The notes under the pieces were generated by a model that saw only the letters and a program-made list of their open reading frames with translations, was not told the origin of the DNA and did not search any database. A stretch of DNA of 64,000 nt, from NCBI GenBank assembly GCA_035527035.1, contig DATLBG010000129.1:6435-70434 (forward strand). Reading direction: 5' to 3'. The position numbers and the translations under genes were made by a program. Position 1 is the stretch's first letter. Each line of letters begins with the position of its first letter. The stretch comes from Gemmatimonadaceae bacterium (GTDB taxonomy: Bacteria > Gemmatimonadota > Gemmatimonadetes > Gemmatimonadales > Gemmatimonadaceae). Below, one piece after another: positions 1 through 6,259 of the stretch.

Positions 1-285
1 GAGGAAAACTTTTCCCTCCACGTGGCGCCTGGTCCATTCGCTCACGTAGGCTTCAACAGGCGCGGTGGCTGCATAAAATCGCCTGTTGGCAGCGCCTGGT
101 TTACGAGCGGGATCGTGCGCCCGGTCCAGGTCGTGGAACATGGCCTCCTCGCGTTTCCGCTCCTCCAGCTGCTCTACCCACTCGCGCCCCATGGTGGTCG
201 GCTGCGATGTCAGCCAGGACCGGAGACTCGCAATCCGATTCGCGGAGGTCGCAAGGTCAGCGGCCGCCCCGGCACCACTCGTCAT
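1..285 (-). CDS. Class I SAM-dependent methyltransferase, N-terminal part only (gene runs off the window edge)
   Basis: Manual translation of the minus strand from the ATG at 285: MTSGAGAAADLATSANRIASLRSWLTSQPTTMGREWVEQLEERKREEAMFHDLDRAHDPARKPGAANRRFYAATAPVEAYVSEWTRRHVEGKVFL. The FHD...RFY...GK-V-L layout resembles the lead-in to the GxGxG motif of polysaccharide-locus methyltransferases. ATGA overlap with the upstream GT2 stop (282-284). Not in the ORF track because it is truncated. Confidence 0.4.
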   Translation of the reverse strand, partial: MTSGAGAAADLATSANRIASLRSWLTSQPTTMGREWVEQLEERKREEAMFHDLDRAHDPARKPGAANRRFYAATAPVEAYVSEWTRRHVEGKVFL

Positions 286-2447
286 TGGCGCACCGCCGAA
301 TCCTGCACGGTCCACGCCGGATCGTCCCGGCGAACGGGCTGCCCGCCCACGAGGAGCTTGAGCACCCCTACGAGCACGCCGATCCCGTGCGTCAGGTGGT
401 ACGCGAGAAAACACGGCGGGAGGAGCAGCACGTGCGCGGGCCGCCGGTACCGGATCGCCTGCTGAACCGAAGCGACCAGAGCGAGCGCCGCGTAAACCGC
501 GAGAATCGCCGCCACGACATACGCAACCGATCGCGAGAAAAATGCGAGCGGAACTCCGAGCAACACGCCTAGCGCGAATACGGCCGTTATTGCGTGCCGG
601 GGCGTGAAGGTGTACGGCGCCAAATACCACATGTACGCGTTAAACGGAGCGTCGGCCAGGAACTGCTTCTGCAGGAATCTTCCGAGAGTGGGCTGTTGGA
701 AGTAGTCCAGCACTATTCTGGGGTCGAGCCATACCCGCCCCCCGCGAGCGCTGATGCGGCGGTTGAACTCGTAATCCTGGCCGCGCCAAAGTCGCTCGTC
801 GAAAAGCCCGAATCGCTCGAACGTCTCGCGTCGGAAGAAGCCGTAAGGAACGGTGTCCGCGGGTCCTTCCTTGGCCGTGGTTCTGAAGGAGATGCCTACG
901 CCGAACCAATGCGTGGTCAGAGCCTGCACGAGCGACGCCTCGTAGCCGGTTCCACGCGCACGCGTGAGGAACAGACCCCCCACGTTGTCGGCACCGGTGC
1001 GGAGCGACGTCTCGACGCATTTGGTCAGATAGTCGGCGGGATACGTGGAATGAGCATCGAGACGCAGCACGTATTCGCCGGTCGAGGCAGCGAGCGCGAG
1101 GTTCAATCCGGTCGACTGCGTGCGCTTTGGATTGTGCAGCAGGCGGAACCGGTTGTCATTGGCCGCAACGGCCGCAACGAGATCGCGCGTGCCGTCAGTG
1201 GAGCCCCCGTCGATCACGAGCACTTCGATGTCCCAATTCGGCGGCAGCAAGAACGATTTCACGGAGTCGAGGCAGGGAATGATGAAGTCTCGCTCCTGAT
1301 AGCAGGGGACAATCACGGAGACGAGAGAGCGCGCCGCTCCAATCAGCGCGGCGCGCGGCGCGGTTACCCGCCACCTCGCATCGGTTCTTCTGACGGGCTG
1401 AATCCCCAGCGCGATGCGCGCCAGACCGCCCAGCACGCCGACGCCATGTGTCAGGTGATAGGCCAGAAACGACAGCGGGAGCAGGAGCACGTGCGCCGGC
1501 CGGCGGTAGCGCACGGCCTGCTGCACCGAGGCCGACACCGCCAGAACCAGGTAGATCGCGAGAATTCCGCCCACGATCACAGCCAACGGTCGCGAGAGAA
1601 ACGCCAGCGGTATTCCCAGCAGGACACCCAGGGCAAACACGGCCGTCACCGCGTGCCGCGGAGTGAAAGTGTACGGCGCCAGATACCACATGTAGGCGTT
1701 GTACGGCGCGTCCTCCCGGAACTGCTTCCGGAGGAATCGCTTCAACGTCGGCTGCTGGTAATAATCCAGCTCTATCCGCGGATCGAGCCACACGTGGCCG
1801 CCACCCGCCGTGATGCGGCGGTTGAACTCATAATCCTGGCCACGCCACAAGCGCTCGTCGAACAGGCCGAATTTTCTGAAGGTTTCGCGCCTGAAAAAGC
1901 CGTACGGCACCGTATCCGCGGGACCTTCCTTCGCACCCGTGCGGAACGAGCTGCCGACGCCGAACCAGTGAGTCGTCAGCGCCTGCACCAGCGCGGCCTG
2001 ATACCCGCTGCCGCGCGCGCGCGTGACGACGAGGCCGCCCACGTTCTCCGCACTGGTCCGCAGCGAGGTCTCGACACACTTCTTCAGGTAATCGGTCGGA
2101 TACGTGGAGTGCGCATCAAGCCGGAGGACGTAGTCTCCATGCGAGTCGGCCAGCGCGAGGTTCAGCGCGGTGGACTGCGTCCGCCTGGGATTGTGCAGTA
2201 ATCGGAAGCGGGGATCCGACGCTGCGACCGTGCTCACGAGATCGCGCGTGCCGTCCGTCGAGCCGCCGTCAATCACCATCACCTCGATGTCCCAACCGGC
2301 CGGAAGCTCGAAGCGTCTGACGGACTCGAGACAGGAGATGATAAAATCCCTTTCCTGATAGCACGGAATGAGCACGGAGACGAGGGATGCCGTCCCGCCG
2401 GGGCCAGCCTCCGTGTGCGTCGCCTGCGTCAAGGGAACAGCGGTCAT
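282..2447 (-). CDS. Tandem-fused double family-2 glycosyltransferase (two complete ExoA-like GT2 plus C-terminal TM units in one ORF)
   Basis: The 735-aa ORF has two near-identical units, SLVSVLIPCYQERDFI...VIDGGSTDGT...RLDAHSTYP and SLVSVIVPCYQERDFI...VIDGGSTDGT...RLDAHSTYP. Each unit is followed by hydrophobic helices. The repeat period is 353 aa (1059 nt). Start trimmed to Met15 (2447), which gives an ATGA overlap with the upstream stop at 2444. Confidence 0.85.
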   Translation of the reverse strand: MTAVPLTQATHTEAGPGGTASLVSVLIPCYQERDFIISCLESVRRFELPAGWDIEVMVIDGGSTDGTRDLVSTVAASDPRFRLLHNPRRTQSTALNLALADSHGDYVLRLDAHSTYPTDYLKKCVETSLRTSAENVGGLVVTRARGSGYQAALVQALTTHWFGVGSSFRTGAKEGPADTVPYGFFRRETFRKFGLFDERLWRGQDYEFNRRITAGGGHVWLDPRIELDYYQQPTLKRFLRKQFREDAPYNAYMWYLAPYTFTPRHAVTAVFALGVLLGIPLAFLSRPLAVIVGGILAIYLVLAVSASVQQAVRYRRPAHVLLLPLSFLAYHLTHGVGVLGGLARIALGIQPVRRTDARWRVTAPRAALIGAARSLVSVIVPCYQERDFIIPCLDSVKSFLLPPNWDIEVLVIDGGSTDGTRDLVAAVAANDNRFRLLHNPKRTQSTGLNLALAASTGEYVLRLDAHSTYPADYLTKCVETSLRTGADNVGGLFLTRARGTGYEASLVQALTTHWFGVGISFRTTAKEGPADTVPYGFFRRETFERFGLFDERLWRGQDYEFNRRISARGGRVWLDPRIVLDYFQQPTLGRFLQKQFLADAPFNAYMWYLAPYTFTPRHAITAVFALGVLLGVPLAFFSRSVAYVVAAILAVYAALALVASVQQAIRYRRPAHVLLLPPCFLAYHLTHGIGVLVGVLKLLVGGQPVRRDDPAWTVQDSAVRQ

Positions 2448-3556
2448 CTCACGGCGACCCTCCGGTACGTCGAGGCGAGCGCATCCCACCTGCGGCGCTC
2501 CGACGGGTACGCCGAATGCGGCTTCTCCGGCCTGGCGATGTAGCGATCCAGATCATCGCTCGTCCAGCCCATTTTCTTGGTGAAGTATTTCTTGTCTTCG
2601 ACGAGCGCCTCAGCCGACGGATAGGCAATTCCCTCGGCGAGCCGCAGCGCCTCGTCTCGCGTCATCTGCCCTGACGCGACCAGCGCGCTCAGGTGAACGC
2701 GGCGTTTGTCCACTCCGAACTTCGTCGGCAGAATGAAACCCTGGTAGAAGCGCGTAAATACCGACTCGTAGTGCTTGTAGGGATACCGCTTGTAACCGTA
2801 GTCGCGCTCAAGTACGTCCAGCGCTTCGTTCTTGTTGTAGTCGAGCAGGTCGAGGAAGGAAATCCATCTGATACGCCGGACGGCCCGGTACCAAAGGTAG
2901 GCGAGTGTGCTGATCGCGGGAAAAGTCCGCAGTCGGACTCCGCCTCCCTTCCCGATCGCTTCGATGTTACGCCTGTCGAACTTCAGCCAGGTCCAGCCCG
3001 GAGGAAAGCGTATGCCCTCTGTCGCCGTATTCGATCCGGCGAGGATGTGGCGCAGGCCGCGCCTCGCGGCCTCGCGGTAATTCACCGCCAGCATGGCGTT
3101 GTCGTACAGGATCTCTACATCAATGACGTCAGCGTCGAAAAATGCCTGCATCAGCTGCCGGTACTCTTCCCAGTCGATGACGTGCGTGTGCAGGTCCACG
3201 CGAAGCCCTCGAATCAGATTGGCGATGTTGTTCTGTGCGAGCTCGGAGTTCCAGCCGTTGTCCATGTGCACGGCCAGCGGGCGGATCCCCAGCTCCACCG
3301 CCTTGGCGAGGGCCCACGAGCTGTCGATTCCGCCCGACACGCCCATGATGCAGTCATACGGCTTCCCCCGGCCCGCGGCCTTCACTTCCGCGACGAAAGC
3401 CTCGAGCCTGAGCTGCCGCTCTGCCGGATCAGTGACGTCGTGGCGCGCCGAGCTCCGCAGCACCTCCGAGCAGTAATTGCAGTTGCCGTCGCCATCGAAG
3501 GCGATGTCGGAAGCCGTCGTGTCCATGATGCAGCGACGGCAGATTCTGTAGCTCAC
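2444..3556 (-). CDS. N-acetyl sugar amidotransferase (WbuX/WbpG/PseA-type, PP-loop ATPase)
   Basis: N-terminal Cys cluster RICRRCIMDTT...DGDGNCNYC, then PP-loop-like CIMGVSGGIDSSW. Sits directly downstream of the HisH/HisF-like pair, as in acetamidino-sugar loci. Confidence 0.8.
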   Translation of the reverse strand: MSYRICRRCIMDTTASDIAFDGDGNCNYCSEVLRSSARHDVTDPAERQLRLEAFVAEVKAAGRGKPYDCIMGVSGGIDSSWALAKAVELGIRPLAVHMDNGWNSELAQNNIANLIRGLRVDLHTHVIDWEEYRQLMQAFFDADVIDVEILYDNAMLAVNYREAARRGLRHILAGSNTATEGIRFPPGWTWLKFDRRNIEAIGKGGGVRLRTFPAISTLAYLWYRAVRRIRWISFLDLLDYNKNEALDVLERDYGYKRYPYKHYESVFTRFYQGFILPTKFGVDKRRVHLSALVASGQMTRDEALRLAEGIAYPSAEALVEDKKYFTKKMGWTSDDLDRYIARPEKPHSAYPSERRRWDALASTYRRVAVR

Positions 3557-4329
3557 TGACGACCCTCTTGCGTGGCGAAGATCTGCTGCAATTCAGTCGG
3601 ATCCGGATAGGTCACGAGCACCGCGCGATGCGGGCCGTGCAGAACGAAGAAGGCGCCGGCCGCGACAGCGCTCGCTCCGGCGTCCACCGCAGCCCTTACA
3701 TCCGCCAGGCTGCCGACTCCCCCGACCGCCACCAACGGAACGGCGATCGCGTGGCTCGCCTCGCGAATCAGTTCGAGGTCGGGGCCCTCCATGGTTCCGT
3801 CGCGGTCCACGGCGTTCAGCAGTATCTCGCCGGCGCCGGCCGCTACCAGCCGCCGCACGTGGTCGAGCCAGGGACCAGGGAGGATCTTTCGCGACGCCGC
3901 GGCATAGAGCTGCATCCGGCCGAACAGCTTCCGCTTCACGTCCACGGAAGCCAGAACCGCCTGCTCGCCGAACTGCTCGGCGATTTTCGTGACCAGGGAA
4001 ACGTCATTCAGGACGGCGGTCTGGAGACACACCTTCTCGACGCCGAGCGCGAACAGCTGCCGGGCCTGCTCGACCGTCCGGATGCCTCCCCCGTAGCACA
4101 GCGGCATGAAGCACTCGCCCGCGAACTGCTCGATCAAGTCGAACTGCGGCCCGCGGCCCTCCACGGACGCCGATATGTCGAGAACCATCAGCTCGTCCGC
4201 CTCCTTCTCGTTGAATATCCGGATGGCGTTGATGGGATCGCCGACGTATTGCGGGGCGGCGAATTTTCGTGTCTTGACCAGGCCCCGCCCACGAAGCAGA
4301 AGACATGGAATGACCCGATGCTTCAGCAT
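3553..4329 (-). CDS. Imidazole glycerol phosphate synthase cyclase subunit homolog (HisF-like, WbuZ-type)
   Basis: MLKHRVIPCLLLRGRGLVKTRKF...VLDISAS...GGGIRT...AVGGVGS, a typical HisF (beta/alpha)8 signature. Lies in a polysaccharide locus, not a his operon. Confidence 0.85.
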   Translation of the reverse strand: MLKHRVIPCLLLRGRGLVKTRKFAAPQYVGDPINAIRIFNEKEADELMVLDISASVEGRGPQFDLIEQFAGECFMPLCYGGGIRTVEQARQLFALGVEKVCLQTAVLNDVSLVTKIAEQFGEQAVLASVDVKRKLFGRMQLYAAASRKILPGPWLDHVRRLVAAGAGEILLNAVDRDGTMEGPDLELIREASHAIAVPLVAVGGVGSLADVRAAVDAGASAVAAGAFFVLHGPHRAVLVTYPDPTELQQIFATQEGRQ

Positions 4330-4943
4330 TCGAGGGCGACAAAGCTCCTCATCACCGACATTCCGAACCGATGGCTTTTCTCGGGATGGAACTGCACACC
4401 ATGGATGTTCCCGCGGCTGAACGCGGCATCGAACGTTTGGCCATGGCGCGCTGTAGCCACGACATCGGAACGGTCACCGCATTCCACGAAATACGAATGC
4501 ACGAAATAAAAGCGTTGCTCGCCGTCGGGGATGAGTCCGCCGGGCTTCGTCACCGTGACCGTATTCCATCCCATGTGCGGAACCTTGATCGCCGGCACCG
4601 GCGGGACAAAGCGCTTCACCTTGCCGCCGATCCAACCCAGGCCCGCGCAGGACCCTTCCTCGCTCTCCTCGCACATGAGCTGCATCCCGAGACAGATGCC
4701 CAGGATCGGCTTCCGGCGGTGAACCACCGCCTCCCGCAAAGCGTCCGCCCACCCGCGTGACGTGAGGCTGCTCATACCCCTGTCGAACGCGCCGACTCCG
4801 GCCAGCACGATCTTGTCGGCCGTCGCGATCTCCGACGGCTCGTCCACGAGGCGCGCTGCTCCCCCGACCTTCTCGACCATTCGTATCACCGAAGCGAAGT
4901 TGCCGATCCCAAGGTTCGGAATTGCGATGGAGAGATTCGTCAC
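4323..4943 (-). CDS. Glutamine amidotransferase, HisH-like (WbuY-type)
   Basis: GNFASV...LAGVGAF...GICLGMQL...HSY...GVQFHPEKS, a class I GATase triad pattern. Start set to the GTG at 4943, giving a GTGA overlap with the GT4 stop. The longer ORF start at 5021 would overlap GT4 by about 80 nt. Confidence 0.8.
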   Translation of the reverse strand: MTNLSIAIPNLGIGNFASVIRMVEKVGGAARLVDEPSEIATADKIVLAGVGAFDRGMSSLTSRGWADALREAVVHRRKPILGICLGMQLMCEESEEGSCAGLGWIGGKVKRFVPPVPAIKVPHMGWNTVTVTKPGGLIPDGEQRFYFVHSYFVECGDRSDVVATARHGQTFDAAFSRGNIHGVQFHPEKSHRFGMSVMRSFVALEC

Positions 4944-6259
4944 GCAGCGGTCCTCGTCTTCTGGGTTATCATCTCCGCGAAAGCCGAGTAGTTGGCCGTT
5001 GCGCTGTACTCCCGTTCCCACTTCGCCCTGCTTCCGGCGCGAAGCCGGTCCAATCGCGCCCGGTCGTCCAGCAGCGACCCGACGACCGCCGAGAACTCCA
5101 CCGGGTCAGGATTCGCTGTGAGCAGCACGCCGTTCTCCGGTCCAATTATCTCCGGGTTTCCTCCGACGGCAGTAGCGATGACGGGTATCCCGGCGCTAAT
5201 GGCCTCCATCACGGCCACCGGCGTTCCCTCGCTCGCGCTGGTGTTGACGAACACATCCACGGGCTGGGCGTGATAGTACGCGAACAACCCATCCCTTCCC
5301 GGATACGGCAGGAAGCGCCATCTGATGTTGGCAGGAAGAACTGCTCGAGCCAAATCCTCCAGCGGCTCTTTCGGCCCGTCACCGATATGGGTCCAGTCGA
5401 ACGTGACGTCTGCCCTCTCACGCCCCAACCGCTCGAGGCAGCGGATGAGCAAGTCGAGTCTCTTGACCGGCACGATGAACGAGCAGCTGACGACTCGGAA
5501 AACACCGTCGGATGACGGCACACTCTGGTGCGGAGCGGCGTCGACGCCAAGTAAGGAAACCTCGATCTTGTCGCGATACGCCGGATATCGGTGGACTACG
5601 TGGCGAGCTCCGGCGTGCGACGCGGAGAACATCCCCGAGATCTGGTCGAGCGCCCGATCGCGGAACGGGATGTAGGGGGGATCGTGCCGCCCCTCGTATA
5701 GATCCACTCCGTGAGCTCTCGTTATTACGGGGACGCCGGCCTTCAGCCGGTAAGACGAGAGACCCAGAGTCGTCGCGTCGAACCACCACGTGTAACACAG
5801 CCACCGGCCAAGCTGATCGGCGTGGTCCCGCGCGAAAGAGCGGATCCAACGCTCGGTTAGCCGCGCGTGCACGTTGTATCGCGCGGCTCTGGCCAGGGCC
5901 GCGGGGTGCCGGAAGAACATCTCACGATGCGCCACGATCTCGCGCCACAGGCGCAGGTCGAAAAGAGTCAACGGTGCCCATAACGCGCGACGGACGCGCG
6001 ACTGGACAAACCGCGAGTATCCGGTGTTGACCGCGATGCCGGGCGTGCGCACATCGTCGAGGTCGCCTTTCGCCAATTGCGGAATGAGGAATATCTTTCC
6101 GAAATAACGCGCGAGGACTTTCAGCTCCTGCTCGAGAAACGTCCTTTCGCCCGTCGCCGAGTACGGGTACGACCCGGTAAAGATCAAAAGCGTGTCCACA
6201 CGCTCGAGCGCCCCACCCGCCTGACGCGGGCGCTCAGTTCTGGTCGAGCGGACGATCAC
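4940..6259 (-). CDS. Glycosyltransferase family 4 (GT-B, GT1-type)
   Basis: C-terminal GT-B motif FVNTSASEGTPVAVMEAISAGIPVIATAVGGNPEII. The start is uncertain: 6259, or the GTG near 6199. Confidence 0.75.
   Translation of the reverse strand: MIVRSTRTERPRQAGGALERVDTLLIFTGSYPYSATGERTFLEQELKVLARYFGKIFLIPQLAKGDLDDVRTPGIAVNTGYSRFVQSRVRRALWAPLTLFDLRLWREIVAHREMFFRHPAALARAARYNVHARLTERWIRSFARDHADQLGRWLCYTWWFDATTLGLSSYRLKAGVPVITRAHGVDLYEGRHDPPYIPFRDRALDQISGMFSASHAGARHVVHRYPAYRDKIEVSLLGVDAAPHQSVPSSDGVFRVVSCSFIVPVKRLDLLIRCLERLGRERADVTFDWTHIGDGPKEPLEDLARAVLPANIRWRFLPYPGRDGLFAYYHAQPVDVFVNTSASEGTPVAVMEAISAGIPVIATAVGGNPEIIGPENGVLLTANPDPVEFSAVVGSLLDDRARLDRLRAGSRAKWEREYSATANYSAFAEMITQKTRTAA

Follow-up and report, generated by a model that had tools for sequence, protein, structure and literature searches.

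The locus studied here raises the question of whether one gene encodes two complete membrane glycosyltransferases and, if so, how such a doubling arose and what purpose it could serve. Many membrane-anchored family 2 glycosyltransferases (GT2) make lipid-linked glycans, and these enzymes are poorly understood. In a Gemmatimonadaceae metagenome-assembled genome (MAG) from soil, the minus-strand ORF at 282-2447 of the window (the whole 64,000-nt stretch of DNA analysed) contains two full GT2 units, head to tail and in one frame. All features described below lie on the minus strand.

One reading frame contains two complete GT2 units

The frame was open from GTG 2489 or ATG 2447 to TGA 282-284, and neither a stop codon nor a frameshift was present at the junction between the units. 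ATG 2447 was favoured as the start because it overlaps the stop codon of upstream wbuX (ATGA); the same ATGA overlap was found in the ortholog locus (L019). Translation from this ATG gives a product of 721 aa (79.9 kDa, pI 9.6), and translation from the upstream GTG gives 735 aa. The units comprise residues 35-387 and 388-735 in the 735-aa numbering, equivalent to 21-373 and 374-721 in the 721-aa numbering, which is used below unless stated otherwise.

Units N and C showed 77.3% protein identity in a global alignment and 78.9% in a 341-residue local alignment. At the DNA level, an ungapped match of 956 nt (2387..1432 vs. 1328..373), 75% identical, recurred with a period of exactly 1059 nt; it scored 430, and codon-shuffled controls scored 15 or less. 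Tandem Repeats Finder reported no repeat because the 1059-nt period exceeds its 500-nt limit, and a repeat search and our own alignment were used instead. Pfam model PF00535 matched both halves in two stretches (E 1e-54; 185 bits vs. a gathering cutoff of 23.3). Its best-scoring stretch was residues 391-523 of the 735-aa form, in unit C; the best stretch of the related model PF13641 was 37-259, in unit N. The ORF, the double PF00535 match and a 35.5% identical match to ExoA bear out the reading in an earlier note on this DNA, made from the letters alone, that two whole membrane GT2 units resembling ExoA are joined in frame. The coordinates, the 1059-nt period and the identity estimate given there also agreed with the alignments.

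The product begins with a 20-residue leader (2388..2447) that lies outside the repeat and is disordered in the AlphaFold model (pLDDT <50 at residues 1-18). The GT-A catalytic domain of unit N (residues 21-234; 1746..2387) carries the motifs DGGSTD (60-65), LDAH (110-113) and QDYEF (204-208). It is followed by a membrane region (residues 235-346; 1410..1745) with an amphipathic interfacial helix (235-256) and hydrophobic helices at 263-282, 286-314 and 319-346. The inter-unit linker (residues 347-373; 1329..1409) is Arg-rich (6 R, 1 D) and consists of PVRRxDxxW and then 15 poorly conserved residues, with pLDDT <50 at residues 364-371. Unit C has a GT-A domain at residues 374-587 (687..1328), with DGGSTD at 413-418, LDAH at 463-466 and QDYEF at 557-561, and a membrane region at 588-699 (351..686), with an interfacial helix (588-609) followed by three hydrophobic ones (616-635, 639-667 and 672-699). 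The "3-4 TM helices" per unit noticed earlier correspond to a single amphipathic helix and three hydrophobic ones. Residues 700-721 form the C-terminal tail, which together with the stop codon occupies 282..350; the TGA overlaps the ATG (ATGA) that opens the next gene.

The doubling is old and both units are under purifying selection

Comparison of unit N with unit C gave dS 1.34, dN 0.164 and dN/dS 0.12, and 50% of third codon positions differed between the halves (chance identity, 34%). The longest run identical between the halves was 20 nt, about as 75% identity predicts. A search for gene conversion tracts along the query gene found none; third-position identity was flat at ~0.5 over the whole unit. 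P0002, an 89% identical ortholog from an independent farmland metagenome assembly, is 735 aa long, has the same two units and is syntenic with the query. Between query and P0002, dN/dS was 0.096 for N-N and 0.062 for C-C. The doubling is real and old: an entire membrane GT2 unit was duplicated head to tail and in frame, and both units are under strong purifying selection. The "very recent duplication" considered in the earlier note is contradicted by the dS of ~1.3, the low dN/dS between the halves and their third-position difference.

The part of the linker that follows the conserved Trp is 15 residues long, the same length as tail plus leader in single-unit relatives, and therefore fits a whole-gene head-to-tail join. 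No remnant of an old stop or start codon was recognisable at the junction; compared in register, leader and linker shared 23 of 60 nt, no more than chance would give. A TGA out of frame near the linker position that matches the C-unit stop was not significant. Read-through of a former stop codon, suggested in the earlier note, was therefore dropped as a line of argument.

The two-unit design recurs in three phyla

The same fused architecture, for which the earlier note had proposed a search, was found in 18 or more protein clusters (50% identity), which belong to Gemmatimonadota, Acidobacteriota and Nitrospinota. Among 8000 candidates scored, there were 750 hits at E<=0.001, compared with 22 two-unit proteins. 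N/C identity within two-unit relatives ranged from 38 to 88%. The older ones reached only 38-55%, and query and P0002 were unusually similar between halves (78%).

The gene lies in an acetamidino-sugar locus

The co-oriented run begins with a GT4 glycosyltransferase gene (4940..6259), assigned by Pfam and NCBIfam matches and the ortholog locus. It is followed by genes for a HisH-like glutamine amidotransferase (4323..5021; ortholog, 207 aa), whose true start is probably downstream of the listed GTG; an AglZ/HisF2-family acetamidino modification protein (3553..4329; NF038364, 342 bits vs. cutoff 310); and a WbuX-type N-acetyl-sugar amidotransferase (2444..3556; TIGR03573, 239 bits vs. cutoff 203), whose stop overlaps the GT2 start. 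Downstream of the GT2 gene is the 5' part of a class I SAM methyltransferase gene (1..285), which continues past the window start; on contig C129, the gene encodes 305 aa. The overlap of its start with the GT2 stop reads ATGA in the query and GTGA in the ortholog locus. The P0002 locus has the order GT4-HisH-HisF-WbuX-GT2x2-MT-GT2, the same as the query locus. The gene content of the query locus includes a CapD-like dehydratase, GT4, two further GT2 enzymes and a PglK/MsbA-type ABC protein. Judged from the sequence, the two-unit GT2 gene is translationally coupled to the WbuX/HisF2/HisH acetamidino-sugar module upstream and to the methyltransferase gene downstream, in a surface-polysaccharide locus. 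Such a locus would have one active site more than its gene count, which bears on prediction of the repeat unit of the acetamidino-sugar polysaccharide.

Fold and membrane topology

In the AlphaFold prediction the order of elements is repeated: each unit has a GT-A sheet and a long interfacial helix, followed by three more long helices. Each unit was confident in the two-unit model, but the pTM of the model was only 0.59, so that it supports no inter-unit interface. Hydropathy analysis gave helix H3 the same hydrophobicity as H1. The H2-H3 loop has a charge of +3 and the linker after H3 a charge of +6, which fits a position of both H3 ends at the cytoplasmic side.

PcManGT, the nearest solved relative, is described with three transmembrane helices (PMC10569066). 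An odd number of crossings would place unit C outside the cell, and this counts against the explanation favoured below, in which the second GT-A domain would also face the cytoplasm. If unit C has to face the cytoplasm, then both ends of a unit must lie on one and the same side of the membrane. As a corollary, the third hydrophobic helix would not be a simple full crossing; hydropathy and charge did not settle the topology.

Catalytic cores and proposed function

The motifs DGGSTD (60, 413), LDAH (110, 463; a DXH variant) and QDYEF (204, 557) were all intact when the two halves were compared, as the earlier note had advised. Residues D60, D65, H113, D205 and E207, together with the partners D413, D418, D464, H466, D558 and E560, were invariant in all 22 two-unit proteins. 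Each half contains the features of the GT-A class, namely a nucleotide-binding Asp, a DXD-type motif after beta-4 and a base Asp/Glu. In a profile alignment, D205 aligned with the "GED" aspartate of K4CP, which is Asp362 by our own residue count from the truncated crystal construct. Asp362 of K4CP is the general base (PMC12595478).

The catalytic cores of N and C were 82.5% identical. Of the 41 differences between N and C that are fixed in query and P0002, 16 fall among the 215 residues of the GT-A part (7%) and 22 among the 112 residues of the membrane part (20%); half of the 16 are conservative. The non-conservative differences S166I, G171T, V140F and D101A are in or near the THWFGVGxSFRT loop, a putative acceptor loop, and could change acceptor choice. 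Since most fixed differences fall in the membrane helices and the cores hardly differ, the two halves very probably share one donor or have closely similar ones; the likeness of the cores leans against different donor specificities.

The best explanation overall is that the protein is an old doubled GT2 that probably acts as a covalent pseudo-dimer with two similar active sites. Both GT-A domains would lie at the cytoplasmic face and work as inverting transferases on a nucleotide sugar, with the Asp of QDYEF (D205, D558) as the presumed general base and DAH in place of DXD. Both would extend a glycan linked to undecaprenyl diphosphate and held by the membrane helices. Two like residues may be attached one after the other, or an obligate dimer may carry out a single step; the addition of two unrelated sugars is less likely.

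It is also conceivable, with distinctly lower probability, that the enzyme is bifunctional, the halves having specialised after duplication for different sugars or linkages. It would then catalyse a disaccharide step or make an alternating polymer, as K4CP and PmHS2 do. The halves have been distinct since before the P0002 split, and some of their 41 fixed differences fall in the putative acceptor loop; however, the high identity of the cores, the sameness of all donor-side motifs and the conservative nature of half of the 16 GT-A differences argue for a shared activity. Polymerases with two GT2 domains and one activity per domain are established (PMC11231755). For the full-length model, Foldseek placed K4CP and PmHS2 at the top of its list, as both also contain two GT-A domains; their arrangement is unlike that of the query (TM-score 0.24-0.34, rmsd 15-22 A), and they are without membrane units. 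The low N/C identity of older two-unit relatives would suit specialisation, whereas the presence of a single-unit gene in the same slot of an otherwise similar locus would not. A pseudo-dimer with two similar sites is the reading that we retain.

Origin of the two-unit proteins

In many two-unit clusters, the N and C halves were each other's closest relatives. The pairs (Q_N, P0002_N) and (Q_C, P0002_C), where Q is the query, formed one clade (support 100/94), and a tree grouping all N units was rejected by the AU test (p = 3.7e-8). A single origin without later homogenisation is rejected by this test. Query and P0002 form a duplication lineage of their own, apart from the other two-unit proteins. 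We infer that the duplication occurred in the common ancestor of the query gene and its 89% identical ortholog, independently of other two-unit lineages; old gene conversion could be an alternative source of the N/C sister pattern.

A rather unlikely scenario, which still has to be weighed, is a single ancient fusion instead of many independent duplications, its halves having been repeatedly homogenised by gene conversion and the single-unit genes having arisen by recombinational collapse. N/C sisterhood and the AU result are also expected under such concerted evolution; however, no conversion tract was seen in the query gene. In addition, N and C units were reciprocally monophyletic in all three multi-member lineages (Q/P0002; P0003/P0006; 13 proteins in P0004-P0017), which means that their halves went unhomogenised while the proteins diverged by up to ~35%. 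Direct repeats collapse readily, and P0122 and P0123, which have a single unit, fall with the N clade of one of the two-unit lineages and share its synteny; nevertheless, single-unit proteins far outnumber two-unit ones (750 vs. 22), linkers are unalignable across lineages and gene contexts differ. Independent duplication remains our preferred account of the query lineage.

Implications and less probable readings

If duplication was independent and recurrent, covalent doubles kept by selection are indirect evidence that these enzymes act as dimers, and they demand that a unit has both ends on the cytoplasmic side. A bolder proposal, which we consider unlikely, is that the recurrent fusion reveals single-unit enzymes (PcManGT-type and ExoA-like) to be obligate dimers, in which paired half tunnels hold or move the lipid-linked glycan and the third helix is non-crossing. 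If this were true, natural fusions would double as topology reporters for the third "transmembrane" helix. The two-unit proteins are ready constructs for structure determination and for telling apart what each active site does.

A self-contained synthase, in which the two three-helix sets form a six-helix channel like that of BcsA or HAS and the protein polymerises and exports a glycan alone, is very improbable. The three helices of PcManGT have reportedly been described as a "half tunnel", the fusion recurs in many lineages, and a single unit moderately resembles Chlorella virus hyaluronan synthase (TMq 0.61) and PcManGT (TM 0.55-0.57). However, the QxxRW motif is absent, the bit scores for PgaC (TIGR03937, 92.5 vs. 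cutoff 422) and NodC (TIGR04242, 71.7 vs. cutoff 550) are low, and confident packing between the units was not predicted (pTM as above). The locus contains other glycosyltransferases and an ABC exporter/flippase, as would be expected if a glycan is assembled step by step on a lipid carrier.

The idea of an assembly artefact, raised in the earlier note, or of a real stop or frameshift at the junction that yields two separate enzymes, could draw on the source MAG being 74% complete in 178 contigs. It can be set aside almost completely: with a difference at every fourth base between the copies, collapse or expansion by the assembler is impossible; the gene lies >6 kb inside a 75-kb contig; the 89% identical ortholog, assembled independently, shares the 735-aa two-unit structure and the neighbours; the architecture is found in 20 other proteins; relatives that have it lie on contig ptg006887l (a long-read-style name) and on a 3.37-Mb contig; and the regions flanking the junction are under purifying selection.

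Comparison with known systems

To our knowledge, PcManGT is the only close structural relative that has been solved. This transmembrane GT2 mannosyltransferase of Pyrobaculum calidifontis (PDB 6YV7-6YV9) has the same unit layout in ~350 residues, with its three hydrophobic helices antiparallel, and both query units show its GT-A domain, interfacial helix and three membrane helices, with a loose overall fit. The profile match had E 1.7e-24, and Foldseek TM-scores were 0.55-0.61 over 341-367 columns. Unlike the query, PcManGT is archaeal and a single unit, and it has DAD where the query has DAH. Sequence similarity is confined to the GT-A part (~20% identity), and the membrane part superposes loosely (rmsd 7-9 A).

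ExoA of Sinorhizobium meliloti is the succinoglycan beta-1,3-glucosyltransferase responsible for the second sugar on the lipid carrier, a GT2 that works on a lipid-linked repeat unit and is encoded in an exopolysaccharide cluster. It matched unit residues 5-215 (35.5% identity, E 1e-30), and several relatives are named ExoA in JGI annotation. ExoA is a single unit, the match covers the catalytic domain only, and the exo cluster is unrelated to the context of the query. Orthology was rejected on the basis of this GT-A-only alignment and the non-exo neighbours (WbuX/HisF/HisH, methyltransferase, ABC protein), and ExoA is regarded as a homolog. In the curated family search, all 24 NCBIfam matches were far below their cutoffs and none placed the query with ExoA; therefore no equivalog name is given. 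Two further groups were rejected: processive synthases (BcsA, PgaC, NodC, HAS), by the missing QxxRW and the TIGR03937/TIGR04242 scores, and the polyprenyl-phosphate glycosyltransferases GtrB/DPMS/ArnC, for which the profile match is confined to positions 4-144 (E 1e-11 to 1e-13) and does not extend past the N-terminal Rossmann half. NF007986 scored 48 against a cutoff of 529.

A literature search for a described two-unit membrane GT2 returned soluble two-domain polymerases only. K4CP chondroitin polymerase (2Z86/2Z87), PmHS2 heparosan synthase (8VH7) and Klebsiella O7 ORF6 carry two GT-A/GT2 domains in one polypeptide. In contrast to the query, polymerases of the K4CP/PmHS2 type are soluble or peripheral, their domains are old, dissimilar and use different donors, and a repeated membrane module is absent. 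A K4CP-like domain arrangement was rejected on the TM-scores given above.

Among annotated records, the longest unit coverage was found for a GT2 from the form I O-antigen plasmid region of Shigella sonnei / Plesiomonas O17, which belongs to an amino-sugar O antigen cluster. It matched 89% of a unit, membrane helices included (27% identity, E 2e-26); it is a single unit with a generic functional annotation. The same two-unit architecture and family are represented by HEY8176514.1 (Gemmatimonadaceae), MFC1491392.1 (Nitrospinota) and MGD0801841.1 (Terracidiphilus). Two-unit relatives are 675-765 aa long and are annotated only as "glycosyltransferase family 2 protein".

Organization of the double GT2 gene

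The double GT2, a two-unit membrane glycosyltransferase, is encoded on the minus strand in a single open frame, which starts at 2489 (GTG) or 2447 (ATG) and is closed by TGA at 282-284. Its product is likely the 721-aa form (79.9 kDa, pI 9.6), because the ATG at 2447 and the stop of the upstream gene share ATGA and this overlap is also present in the ortholog locus. A 20-residue leader precedes unit N (residues 21-373) and unit C (374-721), which are 77% identical in global and 79% in local alignment. The DNA repeat aligned over 956 nt without gaps (2387..1432 versus 1328..373) with 75% identity and a period of exactly 1059 nt. The alignment score was 430, versus 15 or less in codon-shuffled controls; Tandem Repeats Finder, limited to periods of 500 nt, misses the repeat. 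The earlier note was right about coordinates, period and approximate identity.

A Pfam GT2 match was found in each half. AlphaFold gave pLDDT 87 for the whole protein, and pLDDT 95 and pTM 0.90 for unit N alone. Both units showed the same order of elements in the models: GT-A (catalytic domain) sheet, a long amphipathic helix, then three hydrophobic helices, also long, connected by loops of 2-4 residues. The inverting GT-A motifs occur twice: DGGSTD (60, 413), LDAH (110, 463; replacing DXD) and QDYEF (204, 557). Key motif residues were invariant in all 22 aligned two-unit proteins. The QDYEF aspartate aligned with that of K4CP "GED", which a residue count from the construct equates with Asp362; Asp362 is the general base of K4CP (PMC12595478).

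No curated NCBIfam name applies to the protein, since all 24 matches were far below cutoffs. Similarity to S. meliloti ExoA was confined to the catalytic domain (35.5% identity over unit residues 5-215), and a GT2 of the Shigella sonnei O-antigen plasmid was 27% identical across 89% of the unit. Compared with solved structures, a family profile matched K4CP in the first half of the GT-A domain (E 2e-27) and PcManGT over the entire GT-A domain (E 1.7e-24). Foldseek comparison with PcManGT gave TM-scores of 0.55-0.61 on the whole unit, helices included, and Chlorella virus hyaluronan synthase gave a TMq of 0.61. Assignment to the processive synthases was rejected by the absence of the QxxRW hallmark, and assignment to GtrB/DPMS/ArnC because similarity ends after the Rossmann half.

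Age and selection

The two halves differed at 18%, 14% and 50% of codon positions 1, 2 and 3 (third-position chance identity, 34%), with dS of 1.34 and dN/dS of 0.12 (Nei-Gojobori). Third-position identity was ~0.5 and flat across the entire unit, and the longest identical stretch was 20 nt, approximately as 75% identity predicts; thus, neither profile nor longest run along the unit showed any sign of a recent conversion tract.

An ortholog, P0002 (735 aa), from an independently assembled farmland-soil metagenome contig, was 89% identical and had the same two units. Its gene order was also the same: GT4, HisH-like, HisF-like, WbuX, double GT2, methyltransferase and GT2. The N units of the two proteins were 89% identical (dN/dS 0.096) and the C units 94% (dN/dS 0.062), whereas all N-versus-C comparisons gave 77-78%. 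These values indicate that the duplication is older than the split of the two organisms, and that purifying selection has acted on the two halves ever since.

The earlier note had raised the possibility of a very recent duplication or an assembly artefact. The former is contradicted by the dS between halves and by the already doubled ortholog. The latter is dismissed because the copies differ at one base in four, so that an assembler could neither make nor merge them, and the independent assembly is equally doubled. The gene sits >6 kb from the end, inside a 75-kb contig. Double GT2 is almost certainly a real, old, selected two-unit enzyme.

Origin of the doubling

A search limited to long proteins yielded 22 two-unit proteins. 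Identity between halves of the same protein ranged from 38% to 88%. A single-unit query, scored against 8000 candidates, gave 750 matches at E<=0.001; the top 120 listed were 329-388 aa long. At least 18 two-unit clusters were present among the 150 best matches (library clustered at 50% identity). Their source names fell in Gemmatimonadaceae, Nitrospinota and Acidobacteriota (including Terracidiphilus), and one two-unit protein was on a 3.37-Mb contig.

In trees of separated halves, N and C units of the same lineage were closest relatives in at least 12 sampled lineages, with single units interspersed. A careful tree placed the N and C units of double GT2 and P0002 in one clade (100/94), apart from the P0003/P0006 lineage and the 13-member P0004-P0017 lineage. 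The best tree keeping all N units together was rejected (delta lnL 91, AU p = 3.7e-8); this grouping was named after the tree was seen, though it would be the obvious hypothesis a priori.

Many independent duplications are the probable origin of these proteins. A single ancient fusion with later gene conversion and collapse would also fit the results; however, it is rather unlikely. N and C units were reciprocally monophyletic in all three multi-member lineages, so no homogenisation took place in them over up to 35% divergence. Moreover, double GT2 showed no conversion tract, linkers could not be aligned between lineages, gene contexts varied from lineage to lineage, and single-unit proteins were far commoner than doubles.

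The linker past the conserved Trp was 13-19 residues long. This length fits a whole-gene head-to-tail join, being equal to that of the tail (4-20) plus leader (2-11) of single-unit relatives. No trace of an old stop or start survives at the double GT2 junction, where the earlier note had proposed that a stop codon was once read through. A much younger doubling was observed in P0262 (L025:4001-6040), whose contig name (ptg006887l) is of the long-read-assembler type: two 953-nt units, repeated every 999 nt, were 93% identical without gaps. Its 46-nt spacer resembled neither the leader nor the tail of the gene, indicating that this junction is not a plain tail-plus-leader join.

Two single-unit proteins, P0123 (L022:1114-2217) and P0122 (L023:418-1527), occupy the same slot as the P0010 double (L020:6001-8133), i.e., GT4 - GT2 - HisH - HisF - ~400-aa protein. 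In the tree, they clustered with the N units of P0010-type doubles. This shared synteny and grouping suggests that collapse occurs too, the C unit being lost via recombination between repeats.

Locus and distribution

The genome is a 2.0-Mb MAG, 74% complete, and relatives are labelled Gemmatimonadaceae. Double GT2 lies within a tightly packed, co-oriented run of minus-strand genes: GT4 (4940-6259), HisH-like amidotransferase (4323-5021; listed GTG start, 232 aa), AglZ/HisF2 (3553-4329) and, directly upstream of double GT2, WbuX (2444-3556). Downstream is a SAM methyltransferase gene, its start overlapping the stop of the GT (ATGA in the window, GTGA in the ortholog). The contig region immediately preceding the window, C129:278-6719 (L024), encodes two more GT2s, a 584-aa fused ABC protein (PglK/MsbA type), a HAD hydrolase and a NAD-dependent epimerase/dehydratase; neither Wzx nor Wzy was seen in this part of the locus. 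A CapD-type dehydratase is encoded upstream. The locus is one for surface polysaccharide and should produce an acetamidino amino sugar.

From its listed GTG, the HisH-like gene would share 82 nt (4940-5021) with the GT4 gene. Its real start is probably ~25 codons downstream, near the GT4 stop, because the ortholog has 207 aa. A peptide, SANR(I/V)A(S/G)LRSWLxxQP, precedes the called Met of the methyltransferase in both the window (190-285, minus strand) and the ortholog locus (L019:8205-8297). In view of this conservation, the methyltransferase probably starts at the ATG/GTG overlapping the GT stop, ~30 codons before the L019 gene call. In P0019, P0022 and P0024 (615-626 aa), a single unit of this GT2 family is joined, N- or C-terminally, to a class I SAM methyltransferase domain. 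GT2 and methyltransferase activities seem to be functionally linked, because they are fused in these proteins and translationally coupled in the window.

No other family member was found in this 74% complete MAG, and a search of four same-genus genomes (91-99% complete) did not reveal double GT2. A family-level search gave a match in only 15 of 200 genomes, none a two-unit copy of comparable similarity. The locus therefore belongs to the variable part of the genome, such patchiness being typical of variable glycan loci.

Membrane topology and proposed mechanism

The three helices past the interfacial helix had mean Eisenberg hydrophobicity of 0.40-0.59, with helix 3 equal to helix 1. PcManGT has been described with three transmembrane helices (PMC10569066). 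With three crossings, the linker and the second GT-A domain would lie outside the cell, where nucleotide sugar is lacking. The charges speak against this: the loop ahead of helix 3 has a charge of +3 and the linker behind it contains six Arg and one Asp, and this positive charge on both flanks suggests that helix 3 begins and ends at the cytoplasmic side. Judging from the recurrence of the fusion and the catalytically intact second unit, a unit is predicted to start and finish on the same membrane side. If true, this would bear on the membrane arrangement of the PcManGT fold. The whole-protein model (pTM 0.59) showed no confident packing between units.

Both halves are probably active, since both sites are intact and under selection. 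Forty-one residues differed between N and C units yet were identical in both orthologs: 16 of 215 residues (7%) in the catalytic part, half of them conservative (e.g., L/I, E/D, R/K, S/T), and 22 of 112 (20%) in the membrane part. Such a pattern is expected if alike catalytic domains were retained while the membrane modules adapted to asymmetric packing in a covalent pseudo-dimer. Adoption of different donor sugars by the halves is less expected, given the concentration of fixed differences in the membrane part. A few fixed changes (S166I, G171T) fall in the THWFGVGxSFRT loop and leave room for differing acceptors.

We propose that double GT2 is a pseudo-dimeric inverting transferase dependent on nucleotide sugar, which would act at the cytoplasmic face on an undecaprenyl-diphosphate-linked glycan. 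Its two equivalent or near-equivalent sites would add successive like residues or function as an obligate pair. Taken whole, this proposal is moderately probable; the chance that the two sites have the same or similar specificity is about even.

Comparison with known systems

Chains of two complete membrane units carry only generic names in public databases, and our literature search found no description of a chain so built. Double GT2 is thus a real, non-unique case of an uncharacterised design, whose value lies in the light that recurrent fusions throw on dimerisation and topology in enzymes of this kind rather than in this locus itself. K4CP, PmHS2 and Klebsiella O7 ORF6 also have two GT2 catalytic domains per chain, but are soluble polymerases; PcManGT is a single membrane GT2 unit, whereas double GT2 has two in one chain.
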